Shown here piece after piece: positions 37,871-57,296 of a stretch of 64,000 bases of DNA; position 1 is the first letter of the stretch, and each line of letters begins with the position of its first letter. Origin of the DNA: an archaeon. GTDB lineage: Archaea; Aenigmatarchaeota; Aenigmatarchaeia; GW2011-AR5. The notes below the pieces were generated by a model, which was not told the origin of the DNA, searched no databases, and saw only the letters and a list, made by a program, of their open reading frames with translations. The translations under genes were made by a program, and so were the position numbers. The DNA lies in the NCBI GenBank assembly GCA_028279825.1, contig JANQNA010000003.1:114266-178265 (forward strand), read 5' to 3'.

Positions 37871-38305
37871 ATGGATCCTGAAGATAAGATACATTCTACG
37901 TTTGCAGCCGTGGCTACAAGCCTTGGCTACAGCGAGGTGCACGGACGCATAATTTCAGCACTTATGGTGGCTGATAAACCTTTGTCAATGGATGAGCTCA
38001 AGCAGAAAACGGGCTATTCACCGGCTTCTTTATCACTTTCCCTGGATCTTTTAGAGGTCATAGGCATAATCCGCAAAAGCAAGGGTAATGATCGCAAGCT
38101 TTACGCGCGGTTGGAAGGGGATCTTATAGAAGGATTGAGAGACGCAATGATGATCAAGATACAGAAAGAGATTAACTCAACACTATTAGAGCTGCAGGAA
38201 CTGAAGGGACCAAAAACAAAAAAGTCCGTTGCAATTGTTGAAAAAGAGGTCCACAGATTAAAAGAATATGTAAACCGGCTGTCAAAGGTTGACGTGCCAA
38301 AATAG
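37871..38305 (+). CDS. GbsR/MarR-family transcriptional regulator
   Basis: GRII..L....PLSMDEL...TGYS.ASLS..L. Confidence 0.85.
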   Translation: MDPEDKIHSTFAAVATSLGYSEVHGRIISALMVADKPLSMDELKQKTGYSPASLSLSLDLLEVIGIIRKSKGNDRKLYARLEGDLIEGLRDAMMIKIQKEINSTLLELQELKGPKTKKSVAIVEKEVHRLKEYVNRLSKVDVPK

Positions 38306-38348
38306 GTTTATATATTTTCTAGTAAATAGATGTTACAGGATATGAATT

Positions 38349-39356
38349 ATGGGAATACAACTCACCCAACTGGTTGAAGGTGACTTTGTAGATACACAAA
38401 GCCTCTTTGATCGTGTTGTGGCAATAGATGCCTTTAATTGGATATATCAATTCTTGAGCACGATCCGCCAGCCTGACGGAACGCCCCTCAAAGATTCGAA
38501 GGACCGGGTTACTTCTCACCTGTCTGGTCTATATTATAGGACAATCAAGTTAATCGAGGCAGGTATACGTCCTGTTTACGTCTTTGACGGCAAGCCTCCT
38601 GAATTCAAGCAGGTAATCGCGCAGAGAAGAGACGTAAGAGCTGAAGCCCTTCGTGAGTGGCAAAAAGCCCTGGAAGAAAAAGATTACGTTGCTGCAAGCA
38701 AGTTTGCTAAACGTTCAACACAAATAACCCAGGATCATATTGAATCCAGCAAAACACTTCTCGAGACTATGGGTGTACCGTTTATCCAGGCCCCTTCCGA
38801 AGGTGAAGCCATGTGTGCAACTCTTGTGCAGAATAAAGACGCATACTGCGCAGCTTCGCAGGATTATGATACACTTTTGTTCGGGGCAACAAGACTAATA
38901 AGAAATCTGTCAATTTCTGGAAAAAAGAAACGCGGTTCTGACTATATCTATGTGAACCCGGAGATGCTGGTATTGGAAAATCTAACGGAGAAATTAGGGA
39001 TAAACCGCGACCAACTGATATTGGTAGGCATGTTAATTGGTACAGACTTCAATCCGGGCGGTATTCCCGGTTACGGGCCAAAAAAAGCGCTGGATCTGGT
39101 AAAAGAAAAGAAAACCATGTCCAGGGTATTGGAAGGCCTTCCATGGGAGTTTTCTGTCAGTCCGGAACAGATTTTTGAATTCTTCAAGAATCCGCCAACC
39201 GTTGATTACGACATAAAATTCGACGAGCCGGATGAAGACAAGGTAAAAGCATTCATGTGCGATGAACATGATTTCTCAGAAGAGCGCATAGGTAATGCAC
39301 TAAAGAGAATAAAAGAAAAAAGTAATCAGAAGTCACTCAGTCGCTGGGCCAAATAG
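38349..39356 (+). CDS. fen: Flap endonuclease 1
   Basis: DAFNWIYQFL, VFDG, APSEGEA, SQDYD, GTDFN; PIP box QKSLSRW. Confidence 0.97.
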   Translation: MGIQLTQLVEGDFVDTQSLFDRVVAIDAFNWIYQFLSTIRQPDGTPLKDSKDRVTSHLSGLYYRTIKLIEAGIRPVYVFDGKPPEFKQVIAQRRDVRAEALREWQKALEEKDYVAASKFAKRSTQITQDHIESSKTLLETMGVPFIQAPSEGEAMCATLVQNKDAYCAASQDYDTLLFGATRLIRNLSISGKKKRGSDYIYVNPEMLVLENLTEKLGINRDQLILVGMLIGTDFNPGGIPGYGPKKALDLVKEKKTMSRVLEGLPWEFSVSPEQIFEFFKNPPTVDYDIKFDEPDEDKVKAFMCDEHDFSEERIGNALKRIKEKSNQKSLSRWAK

Positions 39357-39357
39357 G

Positions 39358-39663
39358 CTATACTTGACAGCCACACGCTCTCTTACATTGTTCGGTGTCA
39401 TAACCCTTTGCACGGCAAAGCTGGTCAAAGGTTGCGTCTACTGACTCACCAGGCAGCTTGAAGCCGATAACGGTGAAGCCTGTGCTGGCACAGTTCTCTA
39501 TTGTCCTTAATGTATTACAACCCTGGCTAAAAGCACCTTCAAGTTCTATACTTGCGGTCCCGGATCCAAGTCTTCCAGCAAAAAATGCTGCGACAACAAC
39601 GAGAACAAGTACAGCGATAGCGATAACGACTATCATGTTTATGGGCATTTCCATTCCTTTCAT
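39358..39663 (-). CDS. Archaeal type IV pilin-like protein
   Basis: Class III signal MKG|MEMPIN followed by a hydrophobic helix; Cys-rich head. Confidence 0.8.
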   Translation of the reverse strand: MKGMEMPINMIVVIAIAVLVLVVVAAFFAGRLGSGTASIELEGAFSQGCNTLRTIENCASTGFTVIGFKLPGESVDATFDQLCRAKGYDTEQCKRACGCQV

Positions 39664-39820
39664 AAAACCTACTATGGGTTATGAGATATAAATACTTTTT
39701 TGGACTTTTATTAGTATGTCAATATTTCCAAGCCTGCTGGTGATTCTGTTTATTATTATACCGGTTATTATCCTGCTTTATTTTCTGGCTGAGAACAATA
39801 CGGAAGAAACAGCAAGGTAG

Positions 39821-40093
39821 CTATTTTTTCAGTTGTATGTGAATTTTTGACACGTTAATATCCTTGTTATCCAGTTTTATCGAATCAGTCCCTATGTTTA
39901 TCTGTTCTACTTTAACATCCTGTACAAACCTGTTTCTCACGATTTCAACAACGTCAACAGCCTTAGAAATTGACTGGCCTCTGGCCTTAACTATGACGTT
40001 TGTTTGTCCGCTGCCCAGCTGGGTCACAACAGCCAGTACATAAGACATCGAAGGCTTTTTCCCCACAAAAACCACATTATCGGCAGGTTTCAT
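39821..40093 (-). CDS. albA: DNA/RNA-binding protein Alba
   Basis: VFVGKKP.MSYVLAV and KARGQSISKAVDV. Confidence 0.95.
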   Translation of the reverse strand: MKPADNVVFVGKKPSMSYVLAVVTQLGSGQTNVIVKARGQSISKAVDVVEIVRNRFVQDVKVEQINIGTDSIKLDNKDINVSKIHIQLKK

Positions 40094-40124
40094 AAGAATA
40101 ACTGTCGGAAAACTTTAAGTTTTG

Positions 40125-40469
40125 TTATGGACAGGTCATGCAGCACTCTTTTATACATTCAAGACTTGCAGACCCTGAACATGAAGGATAATGCCCGAAT
40201 GACCTTCTGTGAAGCTCACCGCATGCAGATCCTATACCTTCCAGCACATCGTTATCCTTGCCTACCGGCAAAGGATTAACTCCGTCGCCCTTGCATTGAA
40301 AATCATTAGTTGTATAGATACCGCAGAACCTGTTGCGGTTGGCCTCCAGGGTAAACTGATCCTGCGCGGGATTTGCCTGCGACATGAAAAAGAACAATGC
40401 AACCGAAAGCACGGTCACTGCAAGTATCAGGTAAACAATTGTTTCCATCGCTATGGATATTCCCTTCAT
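40125..40469 (-). CDS. Archaeal type IV pilin-like protein
   Basis: MKG|ISIAMET followed by a hydrophobic helix; Cys-rich head. Confidence 0.8.
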   Translation of the reverse strand: MKGISIAMETIVYLILAVTVLSVALFFFMSQANPAQDQFTLEANRNRFCGIYTTNDFQCKGDGVNPLPVGKDNDVLEGIGSACGELHRRSFGHYPSCSGSASLECIKECCMTCP

Positions 40470-40500
40470 AACAATACCTTTACCTTTATCTAATTAAAAG

Positions 40501-42357
40501 TTACGTAAACCCGATACTAAAGCCGCTGTTCGTACATCTCAGATCCTGGCCGTACAGTGTATTCAGGCATGCCTGCAGCCTGTTGTTCGGCTGGCCGTAG
40601 CCTCCGGTAGTAAGCTGTTGGCCAGGGTTTAGACCGTCTATGTTTACGTTACAGCTGAACAGATAACCTCCGCAACACAGTACGTCGTTGGTTCCTTCCC
40701 AGTTAAAGAATACCGGCAGTATCGGAAGACTCGCATTCGCGAATTCATTCACCCATAATGTACAGTCTAAAGCCGGCATATAATCCTGCACGTTGAATTC
40801 AAGGTTCATCGGCCTTTTCTTAAACTCAAGATCCACCTCATCGTGATAATAATAAATTCCGCTTGCCCCGCTTGATTTACATTTTTTTAGTTTCGACTCA
40901 CTACAGTCAATAAAGTTACATGGGTCAACACGCGTTGTTTCATCAGTCCTTATTTCAAAATGAAGGTGTGTGCCTGTGGACGCACCGGTGCTTCCCATTA
41001 TTCCTATTGACTGCCCCTCTGAAACCCTTTCACCTTTTTTCACGCTGACAGGACCCATATGAGCGTAAAAAGAATAAAAGCCCTCGTGCTCTATAAGAAC
41101 ATAATTGCCGTATCCTGTATAACACGGTTCAAACGTGCATATATTTCGTGCATCTACAACAGTACCGTCTGCCACAGCATTTATATGATTTTCCCCGCTG
41201 CCCAGCTGACCTATATCTATTCCCTGATGGAATCTACCATCCCCGTGTATAGGATGCAATCTCCAGCCATAACAGCTTGTCATGAGCCTGCTTTCCACAG
41301 GCCATGGCAACACTCCTTCTATTCCAAGTTCAAAAGGCTCAAAATACTTGACTTTTGCATCATACATCACTACTAAACCAGATCCTTCCGGCACCAGGGT
41401 GGCTGTCGAATAGTTCGAGCCAAAAACGTGAACTTCTTCAACAATGACCGTTAGGTTTATGTCATCGTACGGTTTGGTTATTGTAATGAAGTTGGTCACG
41501 AATGCCCTTATCTGAGCCTTGTAATTCAAAACGCTTTGGGTGGGCAATGTTGAAAAATAATTTGGTTGATAGTGGACGCCCCAGTTAAACGTCTCGGATC
41601 TTTTGAAAAATGAATCACCAAGAATAAGCAGTGATTCCACGGCTACCCTCCCGGACTCAACCATTCTTTTCAGCGAAGTAACTATAAGACTTGTGCTTGC
41701 AGTTTCTGTTTTTATATCACCTCTTCCGTATTCCGCCTCGATTTTTTGTGAAAAGTTAGACGTTATGTTCCTTTCTCTTAGCTGGAATTCTTTGAGCATT
41801 TTATTCAGGTCAACGGTTATCTGGACACCGTCTGCGTCAATATCAGTAGGTATATCCGTATACTTTCCAATCTCAAACTTGTCTCTCAGGTATTGCACTA
41901 CATGCTCGTCTCTCGGGTAACAGATCCTGGGACTTATTCCCGGACTGTTATGTTTGTTTGCAGAAGGTATCCTTTCGTATTCTTCACCATCATGATTGAC
42001 ATCACCGGGTAGAACCCTTGCTCTGTCCATTTTACCTTGGTACCAGTAACGTTCATCCATTTCCGACTGGAAATAGCCGCATCCTATGCTTTCATCAATG
42101 GTTGCAAAAATAGTTTGCACCGTCGATATAAACCAGGTTACACCCAGGGACGAATTAAACGTGTAGAAAGTTGATTTGAGTTTCAGGATTTCTAAAGAAT
42201 CTAAATTAAGCTGTATGTTGCTTTGCAGCTGGTTCTCAGCCATGTACATATAGATTCCAAAAAATGTCAGAAGTATAACCATGACAATTAGTGTCTGTGC
42301 TGTTGTTGCCACGCCCTTAGATGTATGAGAACTTTTGTTATCTTTTGGGTTATTCAT
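40501..42357 (-). CDS. Pilin-like protein with M23 metallopeptidase domain
   Basis: SKG|VATT followed by a TM helix; M23 domain at ~40910..41310: WPV, YGWRLHP, HQGID, GYGNYV, YAH, STGTHLHFEIR, VDP. Confidence 0.88.
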   Translation of the reverse strand: MNNPKDNKSSHTSKGVATTAQTLIVMVILLTFFGIYMYMAENQLQSNIQLNLDSLEILKLKSTFYTFNSSLGVTWFISTVQTIFATIDESIGCGYFQSEMDERYWYQGKMDRARVLPGDVNHDGEEYERIPSANKHNSPGISPRICYPRDEHVVQYLRDKFEIGKYTDIPTDIDADGVQITVDLNKMLKEFQLRERNITSNFSQKIEAEYGRGDIKTETASTSLIVTSLKRMVESGRVAVESLLILGDSFFKRSETFNWGVHYQPNYFSTLPTQSVLNYKAQIRAFVTNFITITKPYDDINLTVIVEEVHVFGSNYSTATLVPEGSGLVVMYDAKVKYFEPFELGIEGVLPWPVESRLMTSCYGWRLHPIHGDGRFHQGIDIGQLGSGENHINAVADGTVVDARNICTFEPCYTGYGNYVLIEHEGFYSFYAHMGPVSVKKGERVSEGQSIGIMGSTGASTGTHLHFEIRTDETTRVDPCNFIDCSESKLKKCKSSGASGIYYYHDEVDLEFKKRPMNLEFNVQDYMPALDCTLWVNEFANASLPILPVFFNWEGTNDVLCCGGYLFSCNVNIDGLNPGQQLTTGGYGQPNNRLQACLNTLYGQDLRCTNSGFSIGFT

Positions 42358-43184
42358 TTAGCAGTCACCTCAAAATATCCAAGAATTTTCTGCTTGTACA
42401 ATAGTGGCACGGTTGCCTTTGTAGCAATACCCGAAGTTACTTCAAGATCGCCTGTTCTCTCACCACAGCAGACTATTGTTTTTCCCTCGTTTATGTCCTT
42501 GCATTCAGGTTTGTAACCCAGACCTATCTGGCCTTCCGAACAGAACGGCCCTAGCCGCCATGGAATTGAAACGGGCGGCACACCAATGTAAATGGTTTCT
42601 TTTTCACCTTCCGAACAATATCCTTTCTCTTCGTCACAACTTTGCATATCATAGCCGGTATATTCTGAAGGCGAAGCTTTGCAGCATATTTCATTAAAAC
42701 TGCATTCCTCCTCAATATCATCCGTTTTTACTCTTCCCACATCACATCCGGTAAACTGGTTTACACACCAGCCTTTACTGTCCAGTCCGCATGTCTGCTC
42801 CCCTGTTTGTATATGCAGAAGTTCTTCTTCACCCTTTTTTACTTTAACCCGGTAAAATTTCATGTCGTACGCTTTCATGAACGATTCTATCTTGGGTGCC
42901 AGTGAATCCGCATTCGCTCTTTCGGGCGAAGTAACAATCATCTGTATGGCCTGTTCCAGTACAGGTCTGTCATCAAGTTTTGTGTGCGCAAGCACCTGTG
43001 AAATCAGGAAAGGTTTGTTGGCTATCTCGACGAATTCTATCGAATATATTTCAACAGGTCCCGTGGAGCTTAAGCTAAACATTAGCCTCGCGTAAAACAT
43101 GAATGCAATCACAAGAAGAGCTACAACTATTACAGCCAGTATAGGCGTCCATACCGCACTTTCCGGGAATTCCATTCCTTTCAT
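42354..43184 (-). CDS. Pilin-like protein with Cys-rich domain
   Basis: MKG|MEFPE followed by a TM helix. Confidence 0.72.
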   Translation of the reverse strand: MKGMEFPESAVWTPILAVIVVALLVIAFMFYARLMFSLSSTGPVEIYSIEFVEIANKPFLISQVLAHTKLDDRPVLEQAIQMIVTSPERANADSLAPKIESFMKAYDMKFYRVKVKKGEEELLHIQTGEQTCGLDSKGWCVNQFTGCDVGRVKTDDIEEECSFNEICCKASPSEYTGYDMQSCDEEKGYCSEGEKETIYIGVPPVSIPWRLGPFCSEGQIGLGYKPECKDINEGKTIVCCGERTGDLEVTSGIATKATVPLLYKQKILGYFEVTAK

Positions 43185-43186
43185 GA

Positions 43187-44203
43187 TTACTCAACACACA
43201 ATACAACATTTGATACGGTGGTATCAAATTCCAGCGGCTCATAATTTTCTTTCAGCTGATCACACTCAGCGTATGATGTAACAGGATAGGCTGTTATGAA
43301 TTCATTTTCACCCAGCGAGCCGTCAAAGTATAATTCGAGGGGTTCAAATTGCAGATCAGGCATGTATCTGCAGTCATGGGGAAGATATCCCAGGGAAGGG
43401 CCATCCCTGTAGTAAATGCATACATGAGTTCCGTCCGTGTCTGTACGTTTGAAAATAATAGAAGGGCTTACACCGACGTAGCCGCTGTATAGCCTGCCCA
43501 TTTGCGTTGAAAATTTGGTTTTTGTTTCATAAGCTTTCTGTGTTATACAAGCCAGTCTTGTAAGCATTGAATCATGGGATGTTAATGTAAGTTTGGCAGG
43601 TAACGTTGTTTCGTGAACACCCGAGGTAGATGATATGCCTACAGGAAAAGAAGCCTTGACGCTCGATACAGAAACACTCCTGTCGGCAGGAGTATAACCG
43701 TACTTCCAGTGATAACCGCTTTGCCATTCATCATCCTTCTTGCATTCACAGAAATTACCGCCAAATACTTCTATGTTACATCCGCAGTTACCCGTTAATG
43801 TGCCTGCGGCAGACATTTGTATCTCGCTGTCATCAAGTCCGCAAACGGTCTTGCAGAACTCTCTGCATTTGCCGCTGTCCTCTTCACAAATAGTCTTTCC
43901 TCCTATAGCCTCAAGTTCCAGGGTATAACCAAAATCACAGCTTCTTGCATACAGTTCTATGTTCCTGTTTGGATCCTTTTTTTCAGCTTCAAAAAGCTGT
44001 ACAGGGTCGAAAACCGCTTTATGCATTGCCAGCGGCGAAGCCGCAAGCGCATCTGACAGCTCTAGATTAAACCGCTCCATTTCCTCACCAATGACAGCAA
44101 CCCTGAATGAGAAAAACATCAGGAGTATAAACAGTATGAAAAGTATCGGGGGAAATATACGAAGTATAAACATGATGATAGCCATTGGATCCATTTTTGC
44201 CAT
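43187..44203 (-). CDS. Membrane-anchored Cys-rich protein of the pilus locus
   Basis: N-terminal TM; operon packing. Confidence 0.7.
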   Translation of the reverse strand: MAKMDPMAIIMFILRIFPPILFILFILLMFFSFRVAVIGEEMERFNLELSDALAASPLAMHKAVFDPVQLFEAEKKDPNRNIELYARSCDFGYTLELEAIGGKTICEEDSGKCREFCKTVCGLDDSEIQMSAAGTLTGNCGCNIEVFGGNFCECKKDDEWQSGYHWKYGYTPADRSVSVSSVKASFPVGISSTSGVHETTLPAKLTLTSHDSMLTRLACITQKAYETKTKFSTQMGRLYSGYVGVSPSIIFKRTDTDGTHVCIYYRDGPSLGYLPHDCRYMPDLQFEPLELYFDGSLGENEFITAYPVTSYAECDQLKENYEPLEFDTTVSNVVLCVE

Positions 44204-44596
44204 TTACACACCTTCTATTCTCAGGGTACCCTTGTCCTTTGTTAATCTCAATGAAGGGGTCTGTCTGCATTGAAATTCTTTTTCCTCAAAATCCAGACCT
44301 GTCTCTATAATACTCACAGCTTCCGAAAGTGTCTTTCCGTCCAGTGACCTTATCTCCAGATAAACAACACCTTTTGATATCCTGATCGTGCATCTTGAGT
44401 CAGGTGTGTCTATAATGTATGTGGTTTTATCAGGAGCAGTGGACATGAGATTTATAGAGCTCGCTACCTGCATCGCCTGCAGCCGTGCATTATTCTCGAC
44501 AGCTTCTTCTGTTGCAGCCTGCAGAGGATTAACAGCACCGACAACAAATATGAGTGTCAAGGCCGTGAGAATAAATGTCCAGTGAAGTGAATCCAT
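44204..44596 (-). CDS. Membrane-anchored (minor pilin-like) protein
   Basis: Start reassigned to MDSLHW after GGGGTGA; N-terminal TM. Confidence 0.65.
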   Translation of the reverse strand: MDSLHWTFILTALTLIFVVGAVNPLQAATEEAVENNARLQAMQVASSINLMSTAPDKTTYIIDTPDSRCTIRISKGVVYLEIRSLDGKTLSEAVSIIETGLDFEEKEFQCRQTPSLRLTKDKGTLRIEGV

Positions 44597-44600
44597 TATA

Positions 44601-46172
44601 TCACCCCGGCCATCCCCACCACCACTTGCGGTCAAAAGCGTCCAGAAGACCCTTGCCTTTTTCCAGTGCAACATCCGTCGGTCCTAGGACAACCGTTTGT
44701 GTGTCAGCAATGTAGCCTGAGTTTAACGGCACAGGTGATTCAAAGAAAATTCCGAATGCACCTCTTATCGCATCGGTTGTTGTTACCCATTCCCAGAATC
44801 CTCCGGCATTCTTGTAAGGATTAGGCGTCCAGCAGTAGTCATCCTTTAATTCAGTTATGGATACCTGCAGGCACACATCCTGTGAAGAAAATTTGTCGGC
44901 AGCACTGCCTGGAATATCATCAATCTCGTTGCCAACGGATTCAACACAGACATAATGCTCAACTTCTTTACCTTTTGAATCTCTTACAGCAATCAGTTTC
45001 TCACTCTTTGTATCATACTCGTACAAAGGATATTTTACCACGTTAGTACACGGTGTATAAGAAGCGTCAATGTAACCGTCTATACTTTGCTGCGCCTGCG
45101 TACAGGAGGCCTTTGTTATTTTCATTTCATTTATCGAGCAAGGGCTAACAACATCAAAGTTGGAGACTTTGAAAGATATGTGTCTTTCAAGAACGTTTGC
45201 AATAAGATCGTAAAGCAGAACAGTAGCACCGATATATGGAACCCTCTTGAACCATCCTTTTATACCAAGGCCGGAAAGAAACTTGCCTACAGTTACACCA
45301 CCGCCAATACCCAGTGATTCAGCAACTTGTGTCTGGTAATTAACATCACCAACTCCGTTGTAGACAAGCTGCACTGCCTTTATATCATCACAGTTGCGTA
45401 AAGGAAATCTGTGAACACCGTCCCTTGTTTTTAAACAAAGAGATTGCGCGCCGCACGGGATATACTTTATTGCAGACTTCTCAAAAGTATTGAGGCTCAT
45501 ATAATTTGTGAATGAAAATACGTTGTCGCCCTGTGAAGGCGTTTCATCATGGTCTTTTTTCTCCCAGTCCCCGTATTCACCGACGTCTTTCAGAATATCC
45601 TGCCCTATGTCAGCCGTTGTTCCCAGTGATGTCCTTTCGTCTTCCTGGTCCAGATATATTTTATTGCTTAGTATTATGTTGTTTATTACAACACCTGTTA
45701 TAGGATCAATACCTTTTCCCTCGGCCGTATCTCTTACTTCTTTTATGAAGTCTTTCACATCCTGGTAGTTGTCTCCCTCGCGGCCGGCGGGATACGGCAC
45801 AATCAGCCTGTTATGCATGTTCTGGTATACTTCCCATCCCACGGCGTCACTCTGTGGAAAAGCTTCATAGTAAACCACGTAGTTGGGATCGCCGTTTGTG
45901 TTTATCAGCCATATAGGCATTACCGTGAATATAGCTGTTAATGACGGCTTGTTCTGCGGCAGCGAAAAAGATATAGTGACAGGGTTCAAGGGATCGTTGT
46001 TAAGGCATGCATGATTCATGCTTGAACGCAGCTTTTCTACATTTGCAAATGCAATCTGGTTGTAAGGATTTGCCACAGCCATTACTATGGAAATCAGAAG
46101 TACTATACCGATCAGCAGAAAAACTAGACTGGTTGTAGTAAAGATTACTTCTGGTGTAGTCACTTCTGCCAT
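44601..46172 (-). CDS. Large membrane-anchored protein of the pilus locus
   Basis: MAEVTTPE followed by a TM helix; internal Gly-rich amphipathic segment. Confidence 0.72.
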   Translation of the reverse strand: MAEVTTPEVIFTTTSLVFLLIGIVLLISIVMAVANPYNQIAFANVEKLRSSMNHACLNNDPLNPVTISFSLPQNKPSLTAIFTVMPIWLINTNGDPNYVVYYEAFPQSDAVGWEVYQNMHNRLIVPYPAGREGDNYQDVKDFIKEVRDTAEGKGIDPITGVVINNIILSNKIYLDQEDERTSLGTTADIGQDILKDVGEYGDWEKKDHDETPSQGDNVFSFTNYMSLNTFEKSAIKYIPCGAQSLCLKTRDGVHRFPLRNCDDIKAVQLVYNGVGDVNYQTQVAESLGIGGGVTVGKFLSGLGIKGWFKRVPYIGATVLLYDLIANVLERHISFKVSNFDVVSPCSINEMKITKASCTQAQQSIDGYIDASYTPCTNVVKYPLYEYDTKSEKLIAVRDSKGKEVEHYVCVESVGNEIDDIPGSAADKFSSQDVCLQVSITELKDDYCWTPNPYKNAGGFWEWVTTTDAIRGAFGIFFESPVPLNSGYIADTQTVVLGPTDVALEKGKGLLDAFDRKWWWGWPG

Positions 46173-46177
46173 TGTAA

Positions 46178-46303
46178 TCACTCAAACCCAAACAGTTCAA
46201 ATACAGAATGTATGCCCGGCAATCCCCCTGAAAGCAGTGACAGCACAACTGCAAACGCTATCAGGAGAAGCACTATGCTAACAACAACATATTCTATTCT
46301 CAT
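46178..46303 (-). CDS. Mini pilin-like peptide (41 aa)
   Basis: Hand-translated MRIEYVVVSIVLLLIAFAVVLSLLSGGLPGIHSVFELFGFE; ATGA overlap with the upstream ORF. Confidence 0.65.
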   Translation of the reverse strand: MRIEYVVVSIVLLLIAFAVVLSLLSGGLPGIHSVFELFGFE

Positions 46304-46434
46304 CTAATAACACCTAACAACATCTCAATATTATTTTCTATTCCGCCGTTAAAATAAACGTAAATAATAAGTGCTATACCCAGGGCTATTACTCCGCCGA
46401 TGATATACAATGCATTTGATACTGTCAGTTCCAT
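46300..46434 (-). CDS. Mini pilin-like peptide (44 aa)
   Basis: Hand-translated MELTVSNALYIIGGVIALGIALIIYVYFNGGIENNIEMLLGVIR; abuts the upstream stop. Confidence 0.65.
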   Translation of the reverse strand: MELTVSNALYIIGGVIALGIALIIYVYFNGGIENNIEMLLGVIR

Positions 46435-47283
46435 TTACTGCGCCTCACATCCCATATATATGCCAAACAACGAGGCAGACGCACAGTTTGCCCTGGCTTC
46501 CGGACATTGTCTGCACTCTTCTTGATTGTAATTACCGCAGCTGCTGAACGGCCTGCATAATCTGCAATTCTCTATATATATTGGTACAACAGTGGGGAAT
46601 GCTGTAACACGAGTTTCATCCCAGTAGCAACCCCTTTCCAGGTTCAGTTTGCATAAGTCTTCCTCTTTGATATCGTTGCAGAAGTTTCTCCTGCATTCTG
46701 TTTCAATATTGGTTGTTATATCAAATGAAGCTATGTAATACTCCGGATAATTGTCAAGCATCTTCCCGAACGTCATCTCGGGATCGTTTATGGCCCCTGC
46801 CACGCCTGAACCCGCTTCCCATAATGTAAAGTGGAATGTATAGTTGCCTTCAAGTCTTCCTATCCTGTTAAGGATGAAATCCATCTTGATATCCTGCGGA
46901 CATTCATATTCATCATCATTGACCCCGCAAGGTAGGACGTTTCGTCCGTCCTGGTCTGTACCTAAAAAGAGCAATGAGTTCAGGTCAAGTACTACAAGAA
47001 AGTCTATCCTGTCTTTTTCACTGCTTGGTATTTCTGTTGTCCCGAATTTTAGTCCGTTTATAGTGAGTATATGATCATCCTGCGCAGGACACGTAAGCCT
47101 GGCCCAGTCTGAAAGAGAATGTGCATCTATTATGCCGACAGTTCCGGGTTCAAAATTTTCTTTGAAAGTCTTTTTTTCGAAAACTTTCATGGGATTTCCG
47201 CCGCCGAGTATCATCAGCGCGACCAATATGGTTAACAGCATCCCAAGTAAGTAAAAGAGCAGGTCTCTTTCTATCCCTTTCAT
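46435..47283 (-). CDS. Pilin-like protein with Cys-rich C-terminus
   Basis: MKG|IERDL followed by a TM helix. Confidence 0.72.
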   Translation of the reverse strand: MKGIERDLLFYLLGMLLTILVALMILGGGNPMKVFEKKTFKENFEPGTVGIIDAHSLSDWARLTCPAQDDHILTINGLKFGTTEIPSSEKDRIDFLVVLDLNSLLFLGTDQDGRNVLPCGVNDDEYECPQDIKMDFILNRIGRLEGNYTFHFTLWEAGSGVAGAINDPEMTFGKMLDNYPEYYIASFDITTNIETECRRNFCNDIKEEDLCKLNLERGCYWDETRVTAFPTVVPIYIENCRLCRPFSSCGNYNQEECRQCPEARANCASASLFGIYMGCEAQ

Positions 47284-47317
47284 AATCTATAACTTGCGCA
47301 GACCCAAATAAAACGTT

Positions 47318-48208
47318 TTAGATGGTCAGGATTCCGGCTTTTATTGTAAAATCACCGTCTTGACCGCCTAACCTCGAGTCTTCGCAGAACAGGAGTTCGT
47401 TAAAGTCATTTGTCTGTCTTGTGCATTCATTGTCTTTCCAGAAACTAAGATAAACAACTTCTGTCACGTCAAATTCTCTGTCACTTCTGTAGTCAATTTC
47501 CGCTCTGACTAATCTGTTATTACAGTCAGGCTCTTCATTTACTCTTACAATTACCTCGCCGCCGCACATCTTCACCCTTTGTTCACAAATCTCTCTTTTT
47601 TCTCCCTCTCTGCATTCCCTGAGAAAACTTGTATATTGCTTGTCAGTATCACACTCCATGGAGAATTGTGCCCAGCATTCGGCAAAAACATCAGTAATAT
47701 CCACCTGATCCAGATCCCTGCGTCTTTTTATCAGTGTATTAACCAGAAGCGCAGCGTCCCTGTCACCTCTTACAATAGCCGGAACGTATTGTCTGAATGG
47801 ATAGTTTGAATATCTCTCAAGATCAACTATAGGTGCAATAACTGTCTGCAGTGTACCTGTAAGTATCGGCTGCGCAGTTACACCGGCTTCCGCCCTGAAA
47901 GTGTCCTGTCCGTTGGAGAGTTCTGCCCTTACGTACTGCTCCTTGAATCTTATTATTGTGATTACGTCTTCCTCGCCTTCACCGATAACCTTCAGTATAG
48001 GCTGAGCTTTTATGTCATAATGATAACTTGTACCGAGTTTTGTCGGTTCTACTGTCACCTCTCCTCCGATCAGGTTTATTGACATGTGTTGTGTAAGATT
48101 GCCGCTGGCATCAAGGCCTGCTCTCAGTTCATGCGCTGCAACATTGAGCGTTAATCCGAGCACTATTAATGCAAGAACCAGTGAAAGAACAAACTTGTTC
48201 TGTTCCAT
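47318..48208 (-). CDS. Membrane-anchored/exported protein of the pilus locus
   Basis: N-terminal hydrophobic helix; start overlaps the upstream stop. Confidence 0.7.
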   Translation of the reverse strand: MEQNKFVLSLVLALIVLGLTLNVAAHELRAGLDASGNLTQHMSINLIGGEVTVEPTKLGTSYHYDIKAQPILKVIGEGEEDVITIIRFKEQYVRAELSNGQDTFRAEAGVTAQPILTGTLQTVIAPIVDLERYSNYPFRQYVPAIVRGDRDAALLVNTLIKRRRDLDQVDITDVFAECWAQFSMECDTDKQYTSFLRECREGEKREICEQRVKMCGGEVIVRVNEEPDCNNRLVRAEIDYRSDREFDVTEVVYLSFWKDNECTRQTNDFNELLFCEDSRLGGQDGDFTIKAGILTI

Positions 48209-48384
48209 TAGCTTACACCCGGGAGACTGCCCACAATAGAATCAAAAAATCCGTAAGCTATATTGCTTACGCCGCTTGGTGCTTCTCCCCCGATAGTCGC
48301 AAATAGTATGAAGAAGACAAACACACCGGCTACAGCCAGTATTACCGCGGTAAGCCACCATGTAACTGTTGATAAACCTTTCAT
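48208..48384 (-). CDS. Flp-like mini pilin
   Basis: MKG|LSTVTWW followed by a TM helix. Confidence 0.72.
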   Translation of the reverse strand: MKGLSTVTWWLTAVILAVAGVFVFFILFATIGGEAPSGVSNIAYGFFDSIVGSLPGVS

Positions 48385-48533
48385 TATGACCATCCTCCAA
48401 GCAGGCCCTGAAGTCCTTCAGAGGCACCCTTTGAGATCTCCGGGGCATATAGCTCCCAGTATGCAAACATGACGAATACTATAACTACAACCCCTATTAT
48501 AGCTAAAAGCAGATGCATGTAACTACCTTTCAT
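48384..48533 (-). CDS. Flp-like mini pilin (49 aa)
   Basis: Hand-translated MKG|SYMHLLLAIIGVVVIVFVMFAYWELYAPEISKGASEGLQGLLGGWS; TAATG overlap with the next gene. Confidence 0.7.
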   Translation of the reverse strand: MKGSYMHLLLAIIGVVVIVFVMFAYWELYAPEISKGASEGLQGLLGGWS

Positions 48534-48693: not shown

Positions 48694-49131
48694 ATGAAAA
48701 AGTTAATACCGCCAATTGTTCTTGTATTACTGTTAGTAGTGGCAGTTCTCATCCAAAAACCCGTTGTAGAGGACAGGCTGGTTACCAGAATTATCGATGG
48801 TGATACAATTGTTGTTGAAGGCGGTGAAAGAGTCAGGCTGTTAGACATTGATACGCCTGAACGCGGTGAACCTTGTTATCAGGAAGCTAAAGATCGATTA
48901 GAAGAGCTGATAGATGGTAAGGAAGTTACTTTAGAGCCGCATGCTGAAGATCGTGACAGGTATGGCCGTTTACTGAGGTATGTTTTTCTTGAAGACCAAT
49001 TGATCAACTTGGTTCTTGTTCACGAAGGACTGGCCACGTTGTATGTATATAACAAAGGACCCTACCACAACTACTTTGTAAAAGCAGAGCAAACAGCAAA
49101 GGAATACGGCTGTGTGTTTAACCAAGAATAG
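48694..49131 (+). CDS. Membrane-anchored thermonuclease (SNase family)
   Basis: IIDGDT, VRLLDIDTPE, DRYGRLLRYV and LVHEGLA. Confidence 0.93.
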   Translation: MKKLIPPIVLVLLLVVAVLIQKPVVEDRLVTRIIDGDTIVVEGGERVRLLDIDTPERGEPCYQEAKDRLEELIDGKEVTLEPHAEDRDRYGRLLRYVFLEDQLINLVLVHEGLATLYVYNKGPYHNYFVKAEQTAKEYGCVFNQE

Positions 49132-51085
49132 ACGTTATCAGCGGTCCGAACATTGCAAGTGTAAGTATCATACAACCGACGAAAACAGTATAGCCCATGA
49201 CAAGCGCGTATCCTGTTGTGTTCTGACGTCCAATAGGATCCTCGCCGTTTTCTATTGAATTTATGAACATTGAAAGTATGAAAGCCGTTTCTATCAAATA
49301 GATACTGACAATAGCTATGAATTCAAACGGGGTTATAGCAACGTCTGCAAACGAAGAAAGGAAAGGCACGTTCACGTTGCCTAAGTCTGTGACTCTTTCG
49401 CCAATCTGACCGAGAATTCTCATTATTATAATAGCAAGTGTTACAACAACGCCGGAGATCATCGGCGAAAGAAAGTACGCCTGGAATCTGAGAGAATTCA
49501 ATGTATCACTTAATTCACCTTTCACCTCTTCCTGGGTGTCATGCAGACCCTTCAGGTATTTGGATATAGAAAGCATAGCAACGGCTGCCGTTCTTACACC
49601 TTTTCTCGTAGATTCAACAACCGTCTTCATTATGGATTTTATCAGTTTTGACGGATAGTAGCGGATGGCTCCATATTGTTTGTCAAAGAATGCCTGTGCA
49701 AACGTAAAGCCCAGCATTTTCATGTTTCTTAGAGCTCTCTGGAAGAGGTCCTTTATGGTCAGGTTCTTTATTCTCTCCATTGAATGCTCTATGGAAAGTT
49801 CTATCGGTATTCCTCCGGATATCTGGCTGCCTAACTGGAAGAGTGCTTCAGCGAACTCCCCTTCTATCTTTCTGACCTTTTCTCTTACTTTCATCCTCTG
49901 TTTTGAGAGAAGAATATAGTATATGCCGAAACTAAGTGAGAAGCCAAAGCCAACTGTTACAGCCGGAAGAATTCCTTCCGGTGTGCCGGAAGCCGCTTCG
50001 TTAAGATACAACAGTAATCCAAATGATATCAGTACTATTCCGATAACAAGTCCGATAGGCCATGCCCTTACATCCTTCTTGCCCATTTTGAACTTTCCCG
50101 GCGGCGGCACATTCGGATTCTCTGTAATATCTATCTTACTGAATGTTGGTGGTCTCGTTTCCAGTATGTTCGTTATAACAAAATAAAGTATGAGGGGCAG
50201 CATTATGTCATACCCAACAAACAGGAACACTGAAGATACGCCAAGGAACACTGCAACTATAGGGAACAGCACCAGACCCATGATAGGCAATATTACCCCC
50301 AATGCATGTACTACCATGACAGGCATTTTCAGGTTCTGGTTAAAGTGTCTTGCCTCTTCACGGCTTCCGTCAAGTATCTTATCCACAGCCTCATCCAGTA
50401 GTTCAATTCTTTTCTGTCCGACCTGTTTCAGCGAAGTTATTGTAAGTTCAACGGCCTCTACAAAAGACCTGTTCTTTTTCCATCTTTTCGTATAATCAGT
50501 AAGCGCATCTTCCATAGAGAGAAACGTACCAAGCTCAACATCCCACAAGAGTTTCTTTATCTCGTATCCAAGCGTAGTGTCAATATTCTCGGCAGCAAAC
50601 TTCACGGCGCTTTCCAGATTCGGTACATTTCTCAGGTACATCGCAATGTACAGAACAAAAGTAACTATGTCCGCCCCTGCTTCCGTCTCATATTTTCTTT
50701 TCAGCCTGCTGGGATAAGTGTGAATATAGAGCGTAAAGAACAGTGCAAGCACAAGAAACATAATCCCAAAGCCGAACGGAAGCCCTGGAAGTCCAAAAAA
50801 TCCCAGAAGCATTAGGAATATAAGCGGCAGCGTGGCAAAGACGGCAAAAGTCATTGTCAGTGAAGCCACACCGGTTGGTGTAACACGAAGATGTGCAAAC
50901 TGTATTGTCTCTTCCAGTTTCTTCCTGCTTTTCTTGTCGGGATCAACCTTAATGATGCCTGTTGCTGTTTTACACGCCTTCTCGTACATAGTCTTCGGAA
51001 GGTTACGGAACTGTTCCTCTTCCTTATACAACCGGTATTCCCGGGATATTAACTTCTTTATTTCTTTTTCCCGTCTCTTTTTCAT
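49118..51085 (-). CDS. Type IV pilus/T2SS membrane platform protein (fused TadB/TadC-like)
   Basis: Two T2SS-F-like halves (NLESAV...; EFAEALFQLG...GIPIE) with TM bundles; adjacent to the ATPase. Confidence 0.82.
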   Translation of the reverse strand: MKKRREKEIKKLISREYRLYKEEEQFRNLPKTMYEKACKTATGIIKVDPDKKSRKKLEETIQFAHLRVTPTGVASLTMTFAVFATLPLIFLMLLGFFGLPGLPFGFGIMFLVLALFFTLYIHTYPSRLKRKYETEAGADIVTFVLYIAMYLRNVPNLESAVKFAAENIDTTLGYEIKKLLWDVELGTFLSMEDALTDYTKRWKKNRSFVEAVELTITSLKQVGQKRIELLDEAVDKILDGSREEARHFNQNLKMPVMVVHALGVILPIMGLVLFPIVAVFLGVSSVFLFVGYDIMLPLILYFVITNILETRPPTFSKIDITENPNVPPPGKFKMGKKDVRAWPIGLVIGIVLISFGLLLYLNEAASGTPEGILPAVTVGFGFSLSFGIYYILLSKQRMKVREKVRKIEGEFAEALFQLGSQISGGIPIELSIEHSMERIKNLTIKDLFQRALRNMKMLGFTFAQAFFDKQYGAIRYYPSKLIKSIMKTVVESTRKGVRTAAVAMLSISKYLKGLHDTQEEVKGELSDTLNSLRFQAYFLSPMISGVVVTLAIIIMRILGQIGERVTDLGNVNVPFLSSFADVAITPFEFIAIVSIYLIETAFILSMFINSIENGEDPIGRQNTTGYALVMGYTVFVGCMILTLAMFGPLITSILG

Positions 51086-51221: not shown

Positions 51222-53444
51222 TCAATAGTTTTTCTTCAGCCAGTTCAGCCATCTTTCGTATATCAATGAATTATCCAAGGTCCCGACTTCTTCCTTGACT
51301 TCATTGCCTATGATGTGGAATCGTGAGTTTGATTTTATCACATTCTCAGCTTCCAAAAGATTGGTGTTGTTTGTTTTCTTTGAATAGTCCAGCAGGGTCT
51401 GCAGGATTTTTGCACGTAGTGTTATATTATTCCATACAGAATCCCAGTTGCCTTTCCAGTCACGCACTCTTGCAGCTATGTCATTAAGCACTTGTGATTC
51501 GCCCATCAAAAGGGTCTTTGACGGCTTCAGTGCGTCTTCCTTTGCTGAATACTCCAGAAGATTCACAAAACCGCCCTCGTCCATTGGGTCTACTTTCCAG
51601 TGTTTTCGCACTTCAGTCATTTCCACTATTCTTCTAAAAGAATGCAACCCGTCCGGAGACTTTAACATGTTGGCAATCACGACAATATCTGTAGACTTGA
51701 AACTTGTGGGCGGCACGCCAAGATCATTTACAACACGGTCAAAAACACCGTATGCGGAATCACCATGGATTGTACCGGCTACTACATTGGCTAATGCACC
51801 GATTCTCATCGCTTCATACAGCGCAAGCGCCTCCTTACTTCTGACTTCACCGATTATAAGACAGGAGTCCCCTAAACGAAGTGCTGTTCTCAGTGCAGCC
51901 TCAGCAGGTAATTCAGTCTCAACATTAGTTATCACGCTTCGCGACTTCAATCTTTCAATATTATAGCCCATTGCAGCTAATTGCTCTGTTGGCAGTTCAA
52001 TCGTATCTTCCACTGTTATGATCCTAAGTTTAGGCATTATCTGTACCATGCACGCGCCCAACAGAGAAGACTTACCGCTCGATCTTGTACCTGCTATCAG
52101 CATTGTTCTTGAACCGTCTATTAAGAACCATAAAAGCCCTGCAGAGAAAGCGTCGAATGCTTTAGCCTTCATGAAAAGAGGAAACGTCCATGGTTTATCC
52201 CTGTGCCTTCTCAACGCAAATCCTAAACCGTCCACAGAAAGTGTCCTTGTAATGGCTGCTACTCTAGCTCTTCCACCAGGCACGGATACCTCTGTATCTA
52301 AAACAGGATTTGATTCATCCAGTGGTCTGCCGCTCTTTAACCTGAACCTGGTTGCCCATGATTCGCCGTCCTCACGGCTGGGAACAATGTTTGTCTCGCA
52401 TTCCTGATGGCCGCCATGGAACAGGTATATAGGCGAAGCACCAAGCGGCGCGTTTATCTCTATATCCTGGACATGCTCGTCCTGAAGTATCAGATCCAGC
52501 ACGCCTAAACCGGCTGTATATCTTGTAAGTATGCTTGCTAATTCCTCTAACCTATGTTCACTTATCTCATAATCCTGGGCCAGATCTCTCAGCATATCCA
52601 GTCCAATCCTAAACAGGTTCTCCCTTATCCTTTCCGGCTGCTCCAGTTCTCCTTCTCTCGGCTCGTGTCTTCCTAGATATCTTCTCGCTGTGTCAAGCAT
52701 GGTGTATTCTATTTCATTCAGCTTAAACTCCGGAGGAATAATGTGATATAACTTACGCACGCTGCCGGGAATAGCGTATATCTCTATGTCAGTCCCGCCT
52801 ATTTTGTACCTTTCCAAAAGTTCTGAGTTGGCCGGAGGAAGAGAAATGTAACGGGTATATATGAAGTTTGGTCTTACAGTCGGGTGAAAGATCCGGCGGT
52901 ATAGTGAACGATCTTTATGGTCACGCAGATTAGGTTTGGCAAGCTGGATAAGCCTGCAATCATCAAGAATCTTTGCTATGGGCAACAACGCCTTTGTCAG
53001 GTATTGATTATACGAATCTTTTTTGATATCCGTTTCCCTTTCCACTTTAATTCGTATTACTCTTATCTCGCGAAGCAGATTCTTGTACGCCTGTATAGGG
53101 TCAAATCTTATGTCATTCATCAGTCTCTGAAGAAATTTATAACGCTCAGGCGCGCTTGCCTCATCTCCAACAACCACAACATTCTTTATAGAAACAAGTT
53201 TTTCTTTGAGTATTCTCTCAAGAGCCATGGCAACTTCCAGTAACATTTTTGATTCTGTAAAATCATATTCGTATTCACGGGTCCCGGCAAAAACAATACG
53301 CACCACCTTTTTGAGCTCAAGAAGTTTATCAATCGTAGTAGCCATGCACGCGCTGTAGTCCTCTATTGAATCGCCATACAGCCCGCCTAAACAGTTTATC
53401 CGCATTTTCTGCGTGTCCTCGTCATATTCGTAATCGTAAACCAT
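51222..53444 (-). CDS. Type II/IV secretion / pilus assembly ATPase (TadA/ArlI-like)
   Basis: Walker A AGTRSSGKS, VEDTIE Asp box, LIIGEVR Walker B, GTIHG. Confidence 0.93.
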   Translation of the reverse strand: MVYDYEYDEDTQKMRINCLGGLYGDSIEDYSACMATTIDKLLELKKVVRIVFAGTREYEYDFTESKMLLEVAMALERILKEKLVSIKNVVVVGDEASAPERYKFLQRLMNDIRFDPIQAYKNLLREIRVIRIKVERETDIKKDSYNQYLTKALLPIAKILDDCRLIQLAKPNLRDHKDRSLYRRIFHPTVRPNFIYTRYISLPPANSELLERYKIGGTDIEIYAIPGSVRKLYHIIPPEFKLNEIEYTMLDTARRYLGRHEPREGELEQPERIRENLFRIGLDMLRDLAQDYEISEHRLEELASILTRYTAGLGVLDLILQDEHVQDIEINAPLGASPIYLFHGGHQECETNIVPSREDGESWATRFRLKSGRPLDESNPVLDTEVSVPGGRARVAAITRTLSVDGLGFALRRHRDKPWTFPLFMKAKAFDAFSAGLLWFLIDGSRTMLIAGTRSSGKSSLLGACMVQIMPKLRIITVEDTIELPTEQLAAMGYNIERLKSRSVITNVETELPAEAALRTALRLGDSCLIIGEVRSKEALALYEAMRIGALANVVAGTIHGDSAYGVFDRVVNDLGVPPTSFKSTDIVVIANMLKSPDGLHSFRRIVEMTEVRKHWKVDPMDEGGFVNLLEYSAKEDALKPSKTLLMGESQVLNDIAARVRDWKGNWDSVWNNITLRAKILQTLLDYSKKTNNTNLLEAENVIKSNSRFHIIGNEVKEEVGTLDNSLIYERWLNWLKKNY

Positions 53445-55751: not shown

Positions 55752-56216
55752 TTACTTACCGGCTATGAAATAAACAGCCAACGCCATGAGTATTATGATG
55801 AAAACTATTCCTATCACGGCATCACTTACCACTACAATTGAGCCGCCGATTGCTATGAAAAATACTATTATACCAACGCCTACCAGCACAGCCGCGGCAG
55901 CTTTGTTGTCAAACAGCTTTGAAAAATCCCCACCGGACATTGTCACGAATAAAGCTATCACGAGTATTCCTGCTATCACGACAGCCGCATAACCAAACAG
56001 GTTAACAAAGAAGCCTGCCAGGAAAGGTCCGCCAAAACCGATCACGAAGAATGCAAATACGAGAGAAATCACACCAACTATCCTTGGATTTTCAAATACT
56101 TTCATTTTAGTTAACAAACCATAAGAAATGGCAAATACGAAGACCCATGGCAGAAGAAATCCGAAAAAACCCAGGGCGTTCAGGTTTGCCACGAGCATTG
56201 TAAATGGATCAGCCAT
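55752..56216 (-). CDS. Multi-pass membrane protein, paralog family member
   Basis: FLLPWVFVFAISYGLL.K motif. Confidence 0.75.
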   Translation of the reverse strand: MADPFTMLVANLNALGFFGFLLPWVFVFAISYGLLTKMKVFENPRIVGVISLVFAFFVIGFGGPFLAGFFVNLFGYAAVVIAGILVIALFVTMSGGDFSKLFDNKAAAAVLVGVGIIVFFIAIGGSIVVVSDAVIGIVFIIILMALAVYFIAGK

Positions 56217-56245
56217 AGTATCACTCTAATCTTCTTAAGTGAGAA

Positions 56246-56755
56246 TTAAGGGCTACCGCCACCACCGGAACCGCCGCCTCCGCCACCACCCTTTGTGATC
56301 ATGTAGACAGCAGCTGCTATGATTATCAGCCAGAATACAAGAACGGCAATGTCAGAACCGATTACAACAGATCCCACAAATGCACCCGTTGATCCTATGA
56401 ACAACAATGCACCGATTACCACAAGTATAAGCACTACGACAATGTGGTTTGCATTCTCCATCTTAAAGCCAACCATGGATATGAACAGTAATATCACAAG
56501 TATACCGGCAAGGTAAGTTGCTGCACCGCCAAACAGGTTAATGAAGAACGATGCTAACTGTGGTCCTGCTGAAGCAGTCACAAAGAATGCAATAACAAAC
56601 GAAAGTGCTATGTTTATCTTAGGACTTTTATCAGAACCAAACAAAGTAAGCTTTGAAAGTAGTCCGTAAACAATTGCAAATGTGAATATCCACGGAAGTA
56701 AAAACCCATAGAACTCAGGTCCCAGTACCGTTGCGGGATTAAGTGCGAAACTCAT
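56246..56755 (-). CDS. Multi-pass membrane protein, paralog family member
   Basis: FLLPWIFTFAIVYGLL.K motif; Gly-rich tail. Confidence 0.75.
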   Translation of the reverse strand: MSFALNPATVLGPEFYGFLLPWIFTFAIVYGLLSKLTLFGSDKSPKINIALSFVIAFFVTASAGPQLASFFINLFGGAATYLAGILVILLFISMVGFKMENANHIVVVLILVVIGALLFIGSTGAFVGSVVIGSDIAVLVFWLIIIAAAVYMITKGGGGGGGSGGGGSP

Positions 56756-57287: not shown

Positions 57288-57296
57288 GAATATTAC

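Follow-up and report, generated by a model that had tools for sequence, protein, structure and literature searches.

A pilin-like archaeal scaffold protein with an inserted M23 peptidase domain: a candidate surface carrier of murein hydrolases in Aenigmatarchaeota

The 64,000-nucleotide stretch of archaeal DNA analysed here (the window; part of contig JANQNA010000003.1, assembly GCA_028279825.1, Aenigmatarchaeota) carries a gene on its minus strand, at 40501..42357, for a 618-amino-acid (aa) scaffold protein into which a Peptidase_M23 domain is inserted. The gene lies in an operon with an assembly ATPase and a platform protein of the type IV filament kind. We give a probability of about 60% to the reading that the protein is a cell-surface carrier of a dedicated type IV filament-like system (pilus, pseudopilus or bindosome-like), with an outward-facing murein endopeptidase for contact cutting of the bacterial wall. 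In the proposed mechanism, a hydrophobic helix behind a leader ending in Lys-Gly would hold the protein in the membrane or, once prepilin peptidase has cut, in a filament. The helix would run on into a two-part scaffold, and this would bind the protein encoded by the translationally coupled gene upstream. The intact zinc M23 domain, held on two flexible linkers between the scaffold parts and replaced in relatives by other hydrolases or by none, would be presented outward and would cut the peptide cross-links of a bacterial wall on contact. Presentation against a bacterial wall is proposed because the archaeon itself appears to make no murein. This might serve to attach the tiny cell to a bacterium, to open the bacterial wall, or to obtain food from the bacterium. 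Nucleotide positions are those of the window, and numbers beginning with G, C and L are our handles for genomes, contigs and loci.

The M23 domain and its insertion site

The Peptidase_M23 profile (PF01551) was matched over its whole length, positions 1-96 of 96, by aa 375-479 of the 618-aa protein (E 8.5e-26; 90.4 bits against a cut-off of 28.7). All expected residues were present in an alignment of M23 copies, namely H377 and D381 in the motif HQGID, H433 in YAHM, and H464 and H466 in HLH. We take H377, D381 and H466 to be the zinc ligands and H433 and H464 to be catalytic, as in LytM and lysostaphin. An AlphaFold2 model built from a 26-row alignment (mean predicted local distance difference test, pLDDT, 85.8) contained a helix at aa 16-88, a mixed alpha/beta N domain, the M23 domain and a C domain, and linkers with a pLDDT below 50 (aa 343-347 and 496-499) bracketed the M23 domain. 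In a Foldseek search of the PDB with this model, 64 matches were obtained at E<=1e-3; among those listed, all were M23/LytM-domain entries except one cyanophage pre-ejectosome entry. They included NMB0315, ShyA, Csd3, LytM and lysostaphin, and the LytM domain of EnvC gave the highest template modelling (TM) score on the target, 0.84, so that the M23 beta-sandwich fold is recognised in the model. Across 95 scaffold proteins, the pentad was complete in 32/43 M23 copies. By residues, profile and fold, the domain in the window protein looks like an intact murein endopeptidase. The first-pass annotation had reported a complete M23 domain in mid-protein from HQGID and HLH; this was confirmed, with H433 as a second catalytic histidine, and the structural modelling it proposed recovered the M23 fold within a scaffold that has no solved pilin fold.

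The remainder of the protein is arranged around this insertion, with all parts encoded on the minus strand. A hydrophilic leader (aa 1-15; 42313..42357) ends in the conserved K14-G15, a candidate class III signal cleavage site. Next comes a single long helix with a hydrophobic start (aa 16-88 by DSSP on the model; 42094..42312), the putative membrane or filament anchor, which ends in a motif conserved in homologue alignments, SLGxTWxISTVQ (aa 70-81; window letters SLGVTWFISTVQ). The scaffold N domain (aa 89-345; 41323..42093) is mixed alpha/beta, confidently modelled, and without a Pfam match or known family. The inserted domain with its low-confidence linkers spans aa 346-500 (40858..41322), as delimited by Pfam, Foldseek, residue mapping and its absence from three orthologues of the same genus. 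The scaffold C domain (aa 501-618; 40504..40857), with the pattern YYYHD..F.KRP..EDYLPALDC.. and a conserved Cys, was found in all aligned homologues, and in forms without cargo it immediately adjoins the N domain. Conserved flanks of the M23 domain were thus delimited at aa 11-340 and aa 501-615.

Full-length orthologues with 36-47% identity occupy the same operon position in relatives. Three cargo-free orthologues from the same genus (G005, G007 and G010; 449-466 aa) lack residues ~338-500, and the flank ..ATxTYxE is joined to YYYHD.. in them. Domains were mapped in 33 full-length scaffold open reading frames (ORFs) from 33 genomes of the order, being the matched genomes whose locus was fetched, after leaving out G003, G017, G023, G041, G051 and G058 (fragmentary or split) and weak matches to the N-terminal part only. 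Any extra domain in the 33 mapped ORFs lay between the N and C scaffold parts. At least one murein hydrolase domain was present in 23 of the 33 genome copies: M23 only in 10, SLT with M23 in 4 (one with two M23 copies), SLT only in 4, SLT with Amidase_2 in 3, and, more rarely, Amidase_3 with M23 and a weak SLT match in 1 and glucosaminidase with M23 and Amidase_3 in 1. A wider sample gave a similar range of families. The cargo-free scaffold profile matched 143 of 1.84 billion representative proteins at E<=1e-3, and 69 of the 73 representatives with both scaffold parts were scanned (4 were dropped for size). Pfam recognised SLT in 33, M23 in 29, Amidase_2 in 3, Lysozyme_like in 2 and SLT_2 in 2, with Amidase_3, VanY, Peptidase_M15_4, CHAP and Glyco_hydro_cc found once each. 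Local probes placed cargo in 49/69 representatives, and 14 of the 20 cargo-free ones were no longer than 520 aa.

On a scaffold tree of 33 rows and 424 columns, from which the cargo columns had been removed, at least 7 changes each were needed for the M23, SLT and any-cargo states. The window's genus was recovered with 99% support; within it, cargo-free G005 was sister to the M23-bearing G002 and G006 (100%), and cargo-free G007 and G010 formed a second group (100%). Because of these repeated changes and of sister lineages with and without M23, gains or losses of the cargo appear to have been frequent and clean. The M23 phylogeny proposed in the first pass was also run (FastTree, 131 rows). 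It placed 16/17 scaffold copies in one cluster with two unnamed matches (Shimodaira-Hasegawa-like support 93), but it was weakly resolved, with too few columns to name a donor. Recent transfer of the domain was rejected, as the GC content of the M23 segment (0.449) resembles that of its flanks (0.409 and 0.472). Since the composition is like that of the flanks and the scaffold M23 copies cluster, M23 appears to be old in the scaffold family and not a recent import or contaminant. Taken together, the sequence comparisons indicate that M23 is a cargo occupying a single fixed insertion site in a scaffold restricted to one lineage.

Two relatives have unusual cargo. The 1021-aa orthologue of G027 (L016:1672-4737 (+)) carries SLT and two M23 copies, both with a damaged pentad (HDGYH, QDHHR), which may be regulatory or binding LytM-type domains like those of EnvC and NlpD. 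The 903-aa metagenome homologue P0010 has, besides M23, a second insertion of ~280 aa at another site, after a GCGYD motif.

The scaffold has been found only in the window's own order. The cargo-free query matched in 39/70 genomes of the order at E<=1e-5, and the scaffold profile matched 36/301 genomes sampled from the phylum, 36 of the 55 in this order and 0/246 outside it; 3 of the 36 were short N-terminal-only matches of family f2, and many of these genomes are 65-90% complete, so that misses are not absences. Contamination or a chimeric assembly join would explain why a domain that is typically bacterial in our control genomes, and whose nearest non-scaffold relatives look bacterial, occurs in an archaeon. 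This explanation was rejected and has a negligible probability, given that the fusion is conserved in the same operon of many relatives, that the segment has the GC content of its flanks, and that 16/17 of the M23 copies cluster. An independently assembled 52.6-kb contig from a public run (which may be the source sample) also covers window 38000-46500 with 0 differences. The genome itself comprises 978 kb in 8 contigs and is 90.9% complete. The gene order around the scaffold gene recurs in many relatives, and Alba and FEN1 (XPG domains) adjoin the operon. The archaeal context given in the first pass was therefore upheld, and the chimeric contig that it had named as a risk was not found.

The target of the enzyme and other wall genes

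No Mur_ligase_M, penicillin-binding protein Transpeptidase or FtsW/RodA match was found in the 90.9%-complete genome, and each of these searches was positive in bacterial control genomes. As no murein synthesis genes were matched, the archaeon appears to make no murein, and the enzyme would have no substrate in its own cell. SLT and glucosaminidase domains cut the glycan between N-acetylmuramic acid (MurNAc) and N-acetylglucosamine (GlcNAc), Amidase_2, Amidase_3 and CHAP cut the MurNAc-L-Ala amide, and M23 and VanY/M15 cut peptide bonds of D-amino acids; pseudomurein has neither MurNAc nor D-amino acids. By family assignment, all cargo families at the site are murein-acting. Bacterial murein is very probably the target, because these families cut murein bonds, because pseudomurein lacks MurNAc and D-amino acids, and because the genome has no murein genes of its own. 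Tethering by the hydrophobic helix agrees with action on contact, more than with a diffusible bacteriocin. The earlier proposal of a wall-cutting enzyme aimed at bacteria is thus borne out by the orthologue cargo (SLT, MurNAc-L-Ala amidases, glucosaminidase, VanY and CHAP) and by the missing synthesis genes. The notion of a wall-cutting apparatus held in part: a hydrolase is carried in 23/33 copies, but wall cutting would be accessory to the apparatus and not its core, because 10/33 orthologues have no recognised hydrolase.

M23 enzymes are glycyl-bond endopeptidases, and some proteins can be cut by them. The M23 domain might accordingly act on another substrate, such as the wall of an archaeal partner (pseudomurein or a proteinaceous sheath) or the cell's own surface proteins, and the host conjectures published for Aenigmarchaeota are archaeal (Pyrobaculum; PMC8407114). 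We regard this as very improbable, since SLT, MurNAc-L-Ala amidases, glucosaminidase and the VanY D-Ala-D-Ala carboxypeptidase, which occupy the same site in relatives, have no substrate in pseudomurein.

The genome contains a second murein-type hydrolase. A 1610-aa ORF that runs into the start of the window (window 1-1534 (+); G000:C2:110967-115799) has an SLT domain at aa 1331-1396 and no obvious anchor at its N-terminus. PHROGs searches with this protein and six neighbours gave no phage context, with matches on the SLT stretch only. Two weakly M23-like proteins on other contigs of the genome, of 545 aa (L002:700-2337 (+)) and 186 aa (L003:1327-1887 (+)), were rejected as second enzymes because HxxxD and HxH are missing; both are degenerate LytM-type domains, and the 545-aa protein has a lipobox-like LVSGC.

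The anchor, the operon and a predicted partner

The class III signal consists of a charged residue at -2, Gly or Ala at -1 and a hydrophobic tract of ~20 residues (PMC3387779). Applied to the 618-aa protein, which begins MNNPKDNKSSHTSK14G15 and continues with VATTAQTLIVMVILLTFFGIYMYMA, this rule finds Lys at -2, Gly at -1 and then a hydrophobic tract. Of 26 aligned homologues, at least 90% retain K14 and G15, and a KG-like N-terminus occurs in 61/69 full-length representatives, as exact KG in 56 of them. Neighbouring genes start in the same manner (MKGMEFPES.., MKGISIAM.., MKGMEMPINM.., MKGIERD..), and MKG with a hydrophobic start was seen in operon proteins of 61, 282, 276, 114 and 101 aa. 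The Lys-Gly and hydrophobic N-terminus shared with neighbouring genes, as described in the first pass, was therefore confirmed. In a loose pattern scan, KG plus a hydrophobic stretch was found in 62 of 3298 ORFs of at least 60 aa across the genome, 9 of them in this operon; there are two further clusters, one of which has a canonical archaeal pilin start, MKGVSPLIAAVLL. A prepilin peptidase homologue (Peptidase_A24; 37.2 bits against a cut-off of 26.5) is encoded by a 271-aa ORF on contig C6.

The operon is headed by genes for a T2SSE-family assembly ATPase of 740 aa (51222..53444 (-); Pfam T2SSE, E 2.7e-18) and a T2SSF/TadC-like platform membrane protein of 655 aa (49118..51085 (-); Pfam T2SSF, E 1.6e-6). 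These are followed at 43187..48393 (-) by six membrane-anchored or pilin-like Cys-rich proteins of 338, 156, 526, 282, 296 and 61 aa, several of them with KG and a hydrophobic stretch. Downstream of the scaffold gene is a conserved neighbour for a pilin-like protein of 114 aa, MKGISIAMETIVYLILA.. (40125..40469 (-)), assigned by ORF, pattern and conserved adjacency. A pilin-like protein of 101 aa, MKGMEMPINMIVVIAIAVLVLVV.. (39358..39663 (-)), with the Alba gene between it and the rest, is a candidate major subunit by size only. About ten small to mid-sized operon proteins, all on the minus strand, belong to no Pfam family. The start codon of the scaffold gene and the upstream stop codon lie within a shared 4 nt (ATGA), and the downstream gene is 31 nt away. 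Thus, the operon with overlapping neighbours described in the first pass stands as an operon, but the overlap holds for the upstream neighbour only. An ATPase orthologue with 64-80% identity precedes the scaffold gene by 8-10 kb, in the same orientation, in 4/5 long-contig relatives. A prepilin peptidase in the genome and linkage of the gene to an ATPase and platform, which together were taken as a mark of an archaeal type IV pilin-like protein, are both present.

Several features of the operon were observed in addition. Cys counts were even in 9/9 operon proteins counted at window 39358-48208 (-) (6, 8, 14, 12, 14, 2, 10, 14 and 8), a set that covers five of the six proteins at 43187..48393, with the 61-aa ORF outside it; this fits disulphide-bonded extracellular proteins. 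A gene of the staphylococcal nuclease family (48694-49131 (+); PF00565, E 2.7e-17) with a hydrophobic signal-like N-terminus lies inside the operon on the opposite strand, and its product is possibly secreted and working beside the wall hydrolase. In G046 (G046:C4:526539-530276 (+)) the ATPase orthologue is in a 1292-aa frame with ~490 aa extra between query residues 491 and 478, which may be an intein. Elsewhere in the window, positions 10001-20000 have a GC content of 0.31-0.34, against ~0.41 for the whole window, and may be an island, and four multi-pass membrane proteins of similar build (151-186 aa) stand in a row at 55752-57857 (-), one of them ending in a glycine run, GGGGGGSGGGGSP.

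The upstream overlapping gene (42354..43184 (-)) encodes a 276-aa MKG-anchored protein with two Cys-rich modules, which is the predicted partner of the scaffold by the 4-nt overlap, conserved adjacency, an alignment of 25 orthologues and co-folding. The co-fold was made with the G005 orthologues, using the ectodomains of the scaffold (aa 60-449) and of the upstream neighbour (aa 45-263) and their own alignments. The median interaction prediction score from aligned errors (ipSAE) was 0.71 (runs 0.75, 0.66 and 0.71) against 0.01 for the best control; the mark for this score was reached by 58/80 solved complexes and 2/110 mismatched pairs, a calibration that is only rough with own alignments. The runs share at least 96% of contacts, and the partner has a pLDDT of at least 74. 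On the scaffold side, the predicted interface involves the SLGxTWxISTVQ end of the long helix and the first strands past the insertion site; on the neighbour side, it involves NKPYxxxExLxH..DR..LE and a C-terminal PLLYK..LEV strand. These are the most conserved motifs of both families. The model supports a multi-subunit surface assembly in which the scaffold and the upstream neighbour would take part. The neighbour family itself has two tandem modules of the form CG..G.C....C.VGR.EI...C....CC with no known family matches, and some relatives have extra copies (ORFs in L014, L022 and L026).

Several observations weigh against the carrier reading. With regard to the enzyme, 10/33 orthologues have no recognised hydrolase, the pentad is incomplete in 11/43 M23 copies of relatives, and no cell-wall-binding domain was found in the 618-aa protein, in which M23 is the sole Pfam family at E<=0.1. 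With regard to the anchor, the N-terminal helix has 73 residues, compared with ~50 in typical pilins (PMC8179133). A Pfam search at E<=10 with the cargo-free scaffold and nine operon neighbours returned nothing usable, and no pilin family matched either the 618-aa protein or its neighbours. The cargo-free orthologue was modelled well (pLDDT 88.2; predicted TM score 0.81), but in Foldseek it had 0 PDB matches at E<=1e-3 and no pilin fold was recognised; its best match was at chance level (E 8.7e-3, probability 0.06), with no pilin among the weak matches. In the ESM Atlas, aa 16-342 matched unnamed archaeal clusters at 0.90-0.92, and the nearest named family, DUF7286 at 0.82, is a lead only. The co-fold is of the G005 orthologue pair with own alignments and not of the window's own pair, and 133 kb separate the scaffold gene from the ATPase orthologue in G014. 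A search of public sequencing runs listed no RNA run with the locus and one DNA run, which may be the source sample, and this gives no evidence on expression.

It is accordingly the N-terminal signal and the long helix, and not the fold, that justify calling the protein pilin-like. The description of the protein in the first pass as pilin-like and pilus-displayed was supported as to a class III-like anchor encoded in a type IV filament operon, but not as to pilin identity. A rival reading is a plain membrane-anchored ecto-enzyme, in which Lys-Gly and the hydrophobic stretch would be a signal anchor under the positive-inside rule and the protein would remain in the cell membrane, perhaps complexed with its neighbours, and never enter a filament, while still cutting murein at the contact zone. 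The lack of a recognised pilin fold or family and the unusually long helix agree with this, as do neighbour leaders that consist of just MKG and a globular body of more than 500 aa, which is bulky for a filament subunit. However, Lys-Gly is kept far beyond what the positive-inside rule needs, the gene stands with a dedicated ATPase and platform operon in 4/5 relatives, a prepilin peptidase is present, and bulky modular pilins are known at the tips of bacterial filaments (PMC8179133). The ecto-enzyme is thus unlikely, though it is the strongest of the rivals. Cleavage by prepilin peptidase, secretion via the filament system and display on a pilus are inferred for the 618-aa protein, as are the activity of the enzyme and the bacterial partner.

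It is improbable that the apparatus serves scavenging, in which free wall debris or dead bacteria would be digested for amino acids and amino sugars without a particular living host or prey. DPANN genomes encode little metabolism, the operon includes a nuclease of the secreted type, and the cargo sets of relatives jointly cover glycan, amide and peptide bonds, all of which would suit such a role. However, M23 alone yields no monomers, and the enzyme is tethered, not freely secreted.

The carrier reading can be extended to a bolder one, which we hold as tentative and rather doubtful: one order of Aenigmarchaeota would possess a dedicated type IV filament with an "enzyme holder" in its tip or surface complex, whose single swappable site shows murein endopeptidases, lytic transglycosylases, amidases and carboxypeptidases in combinations that differ between lineages, and which would amount to an archaeal contact-dependent bacteriolytic pilus. 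If so, these DPANN archaea would live on or prey on bacteria, not archaea, and the cargo would follow the kind of wall that the local partner has. Few DPANN archaea have an identified partner, and a conserved, operon-encoded surface carrier that, when loaded, always bears murein hydrolases would point to bacterial partners or prey. The carrier offers a testable soluble enzyme, a predicted two-protein complex and a surface antigen. Cargo swapping would also show a way in which archaea can adapt a type IV filament system to interaction across domains, and the scaffold might serve as a natural display platform.

Comparison with known systems

Murein hydrolases of DPANN archaea acting against bacteria are already in print, and the pilus-operon carrier with swappable cargo is new. 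Archaeal murein hydrolases that kill bacteria have been shown in the haloarchaeon Halogranum salarium (Woldo, an M23, and Danwoldo), and the accompanying survey across archaea, which required a wall-binding domain for inclusion, found murein hydrolases to be prominent in Nanoarchaeota (PMC12352652). Like Woldo, the window protein has a bacterial-type M23 domain in a murein-free archaeon, is probably aimed at bacteria, and has a domain that is patchy among close relatives. In contrast, Woldo is secreted by the twin-arginine translocation pathway, is diffusible and has PG_binding_1 domains, whereas the M23 domain described here is inserted in an anchored scaffold. Lacking the combination of a catalytic and a wall-binding domain, the window protein falls outside the count of that survey, whose main text does not contain the words "pilin", "pilus" or "Aenigm".

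For large extracellular SLT proteins of Woese- and Pacearchaeota, binding or degradation of the walls of bacteria has been proposed (PMC8204110, PMC9723730, PMC10936187). Those of family fam00969 are likewise surface murein hydrolase proteins, suggesting episymbiosis on or predation of bacteria (PMC8204110, PMC9723730). However, they are defined by SLT, reach 3,000 aa and belong to other phyla, whereas the window protein has M23 only and 618 aa; the scaffold is set apart from them by their descriptions. The window protein has no SLT/GH23 domain, and SLT is found in many scaffold orthologues and in the 1610-aa ORF. Pili are not mentioned in the accessible texts on these SLT proteins (PMC8204110, PMC9723730, PMC10936187). 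The Aenigmarchaeota study that conjectures an archaeal host does not, in its accessible text, use the words peptidoglycan, murein or M23 (PMC8407114). No paper that connects murein hydrolases with archaeal operons for pilin-like proteins or type IV filaments was found in our search, which covered an incomplete full-text literature apart from supplements.

With respect to architecture, the large pseudopilin at the tip of the type II secretion system is a useful reference. In its GspK-GspI-GspJ minor pseudopilin complex, a large subunit with an inserted domain docks smaller neighbours encoded beside it. The predicted complex of the scaffold and its upstream neighbour fits that picture, but the scaffold has no PDB fold match at E<=1e-3, and membership is not claimed. 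The modular type IV pilins PilB and PilC of S. sanguinis, with a von Willebrand factor A (vWA) and a lectin module, respectively, show a similar design, in which a module is grafted by short linkers on a protein with a class III signal, probably at the tip, and many such architectures exist, including peptidase modules (PMC8179133). The PilB module, however, follows a small pilin fold, whereas here the module lies inside a scaffold of ~450 aa without a pilin fold, and that survey is of bacterial IPR012902 proteins only. In the Sulfolobus bindosome (Bas), non-filament proteins with class III signals depend for their functional display on an ATPase and a platform of the type IV pilus kind (PMC3387779), as may be the case for the window operon. 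Compared by function only, the bindosome shows sugar-binding proteins for uptake, whereas the function displayed by the window operon would be wall hydrolysis. The gain over what is in print is mechanistic and lineage-specific, and consists of a modular carrier with one insertion site and a predicted partner subunit.

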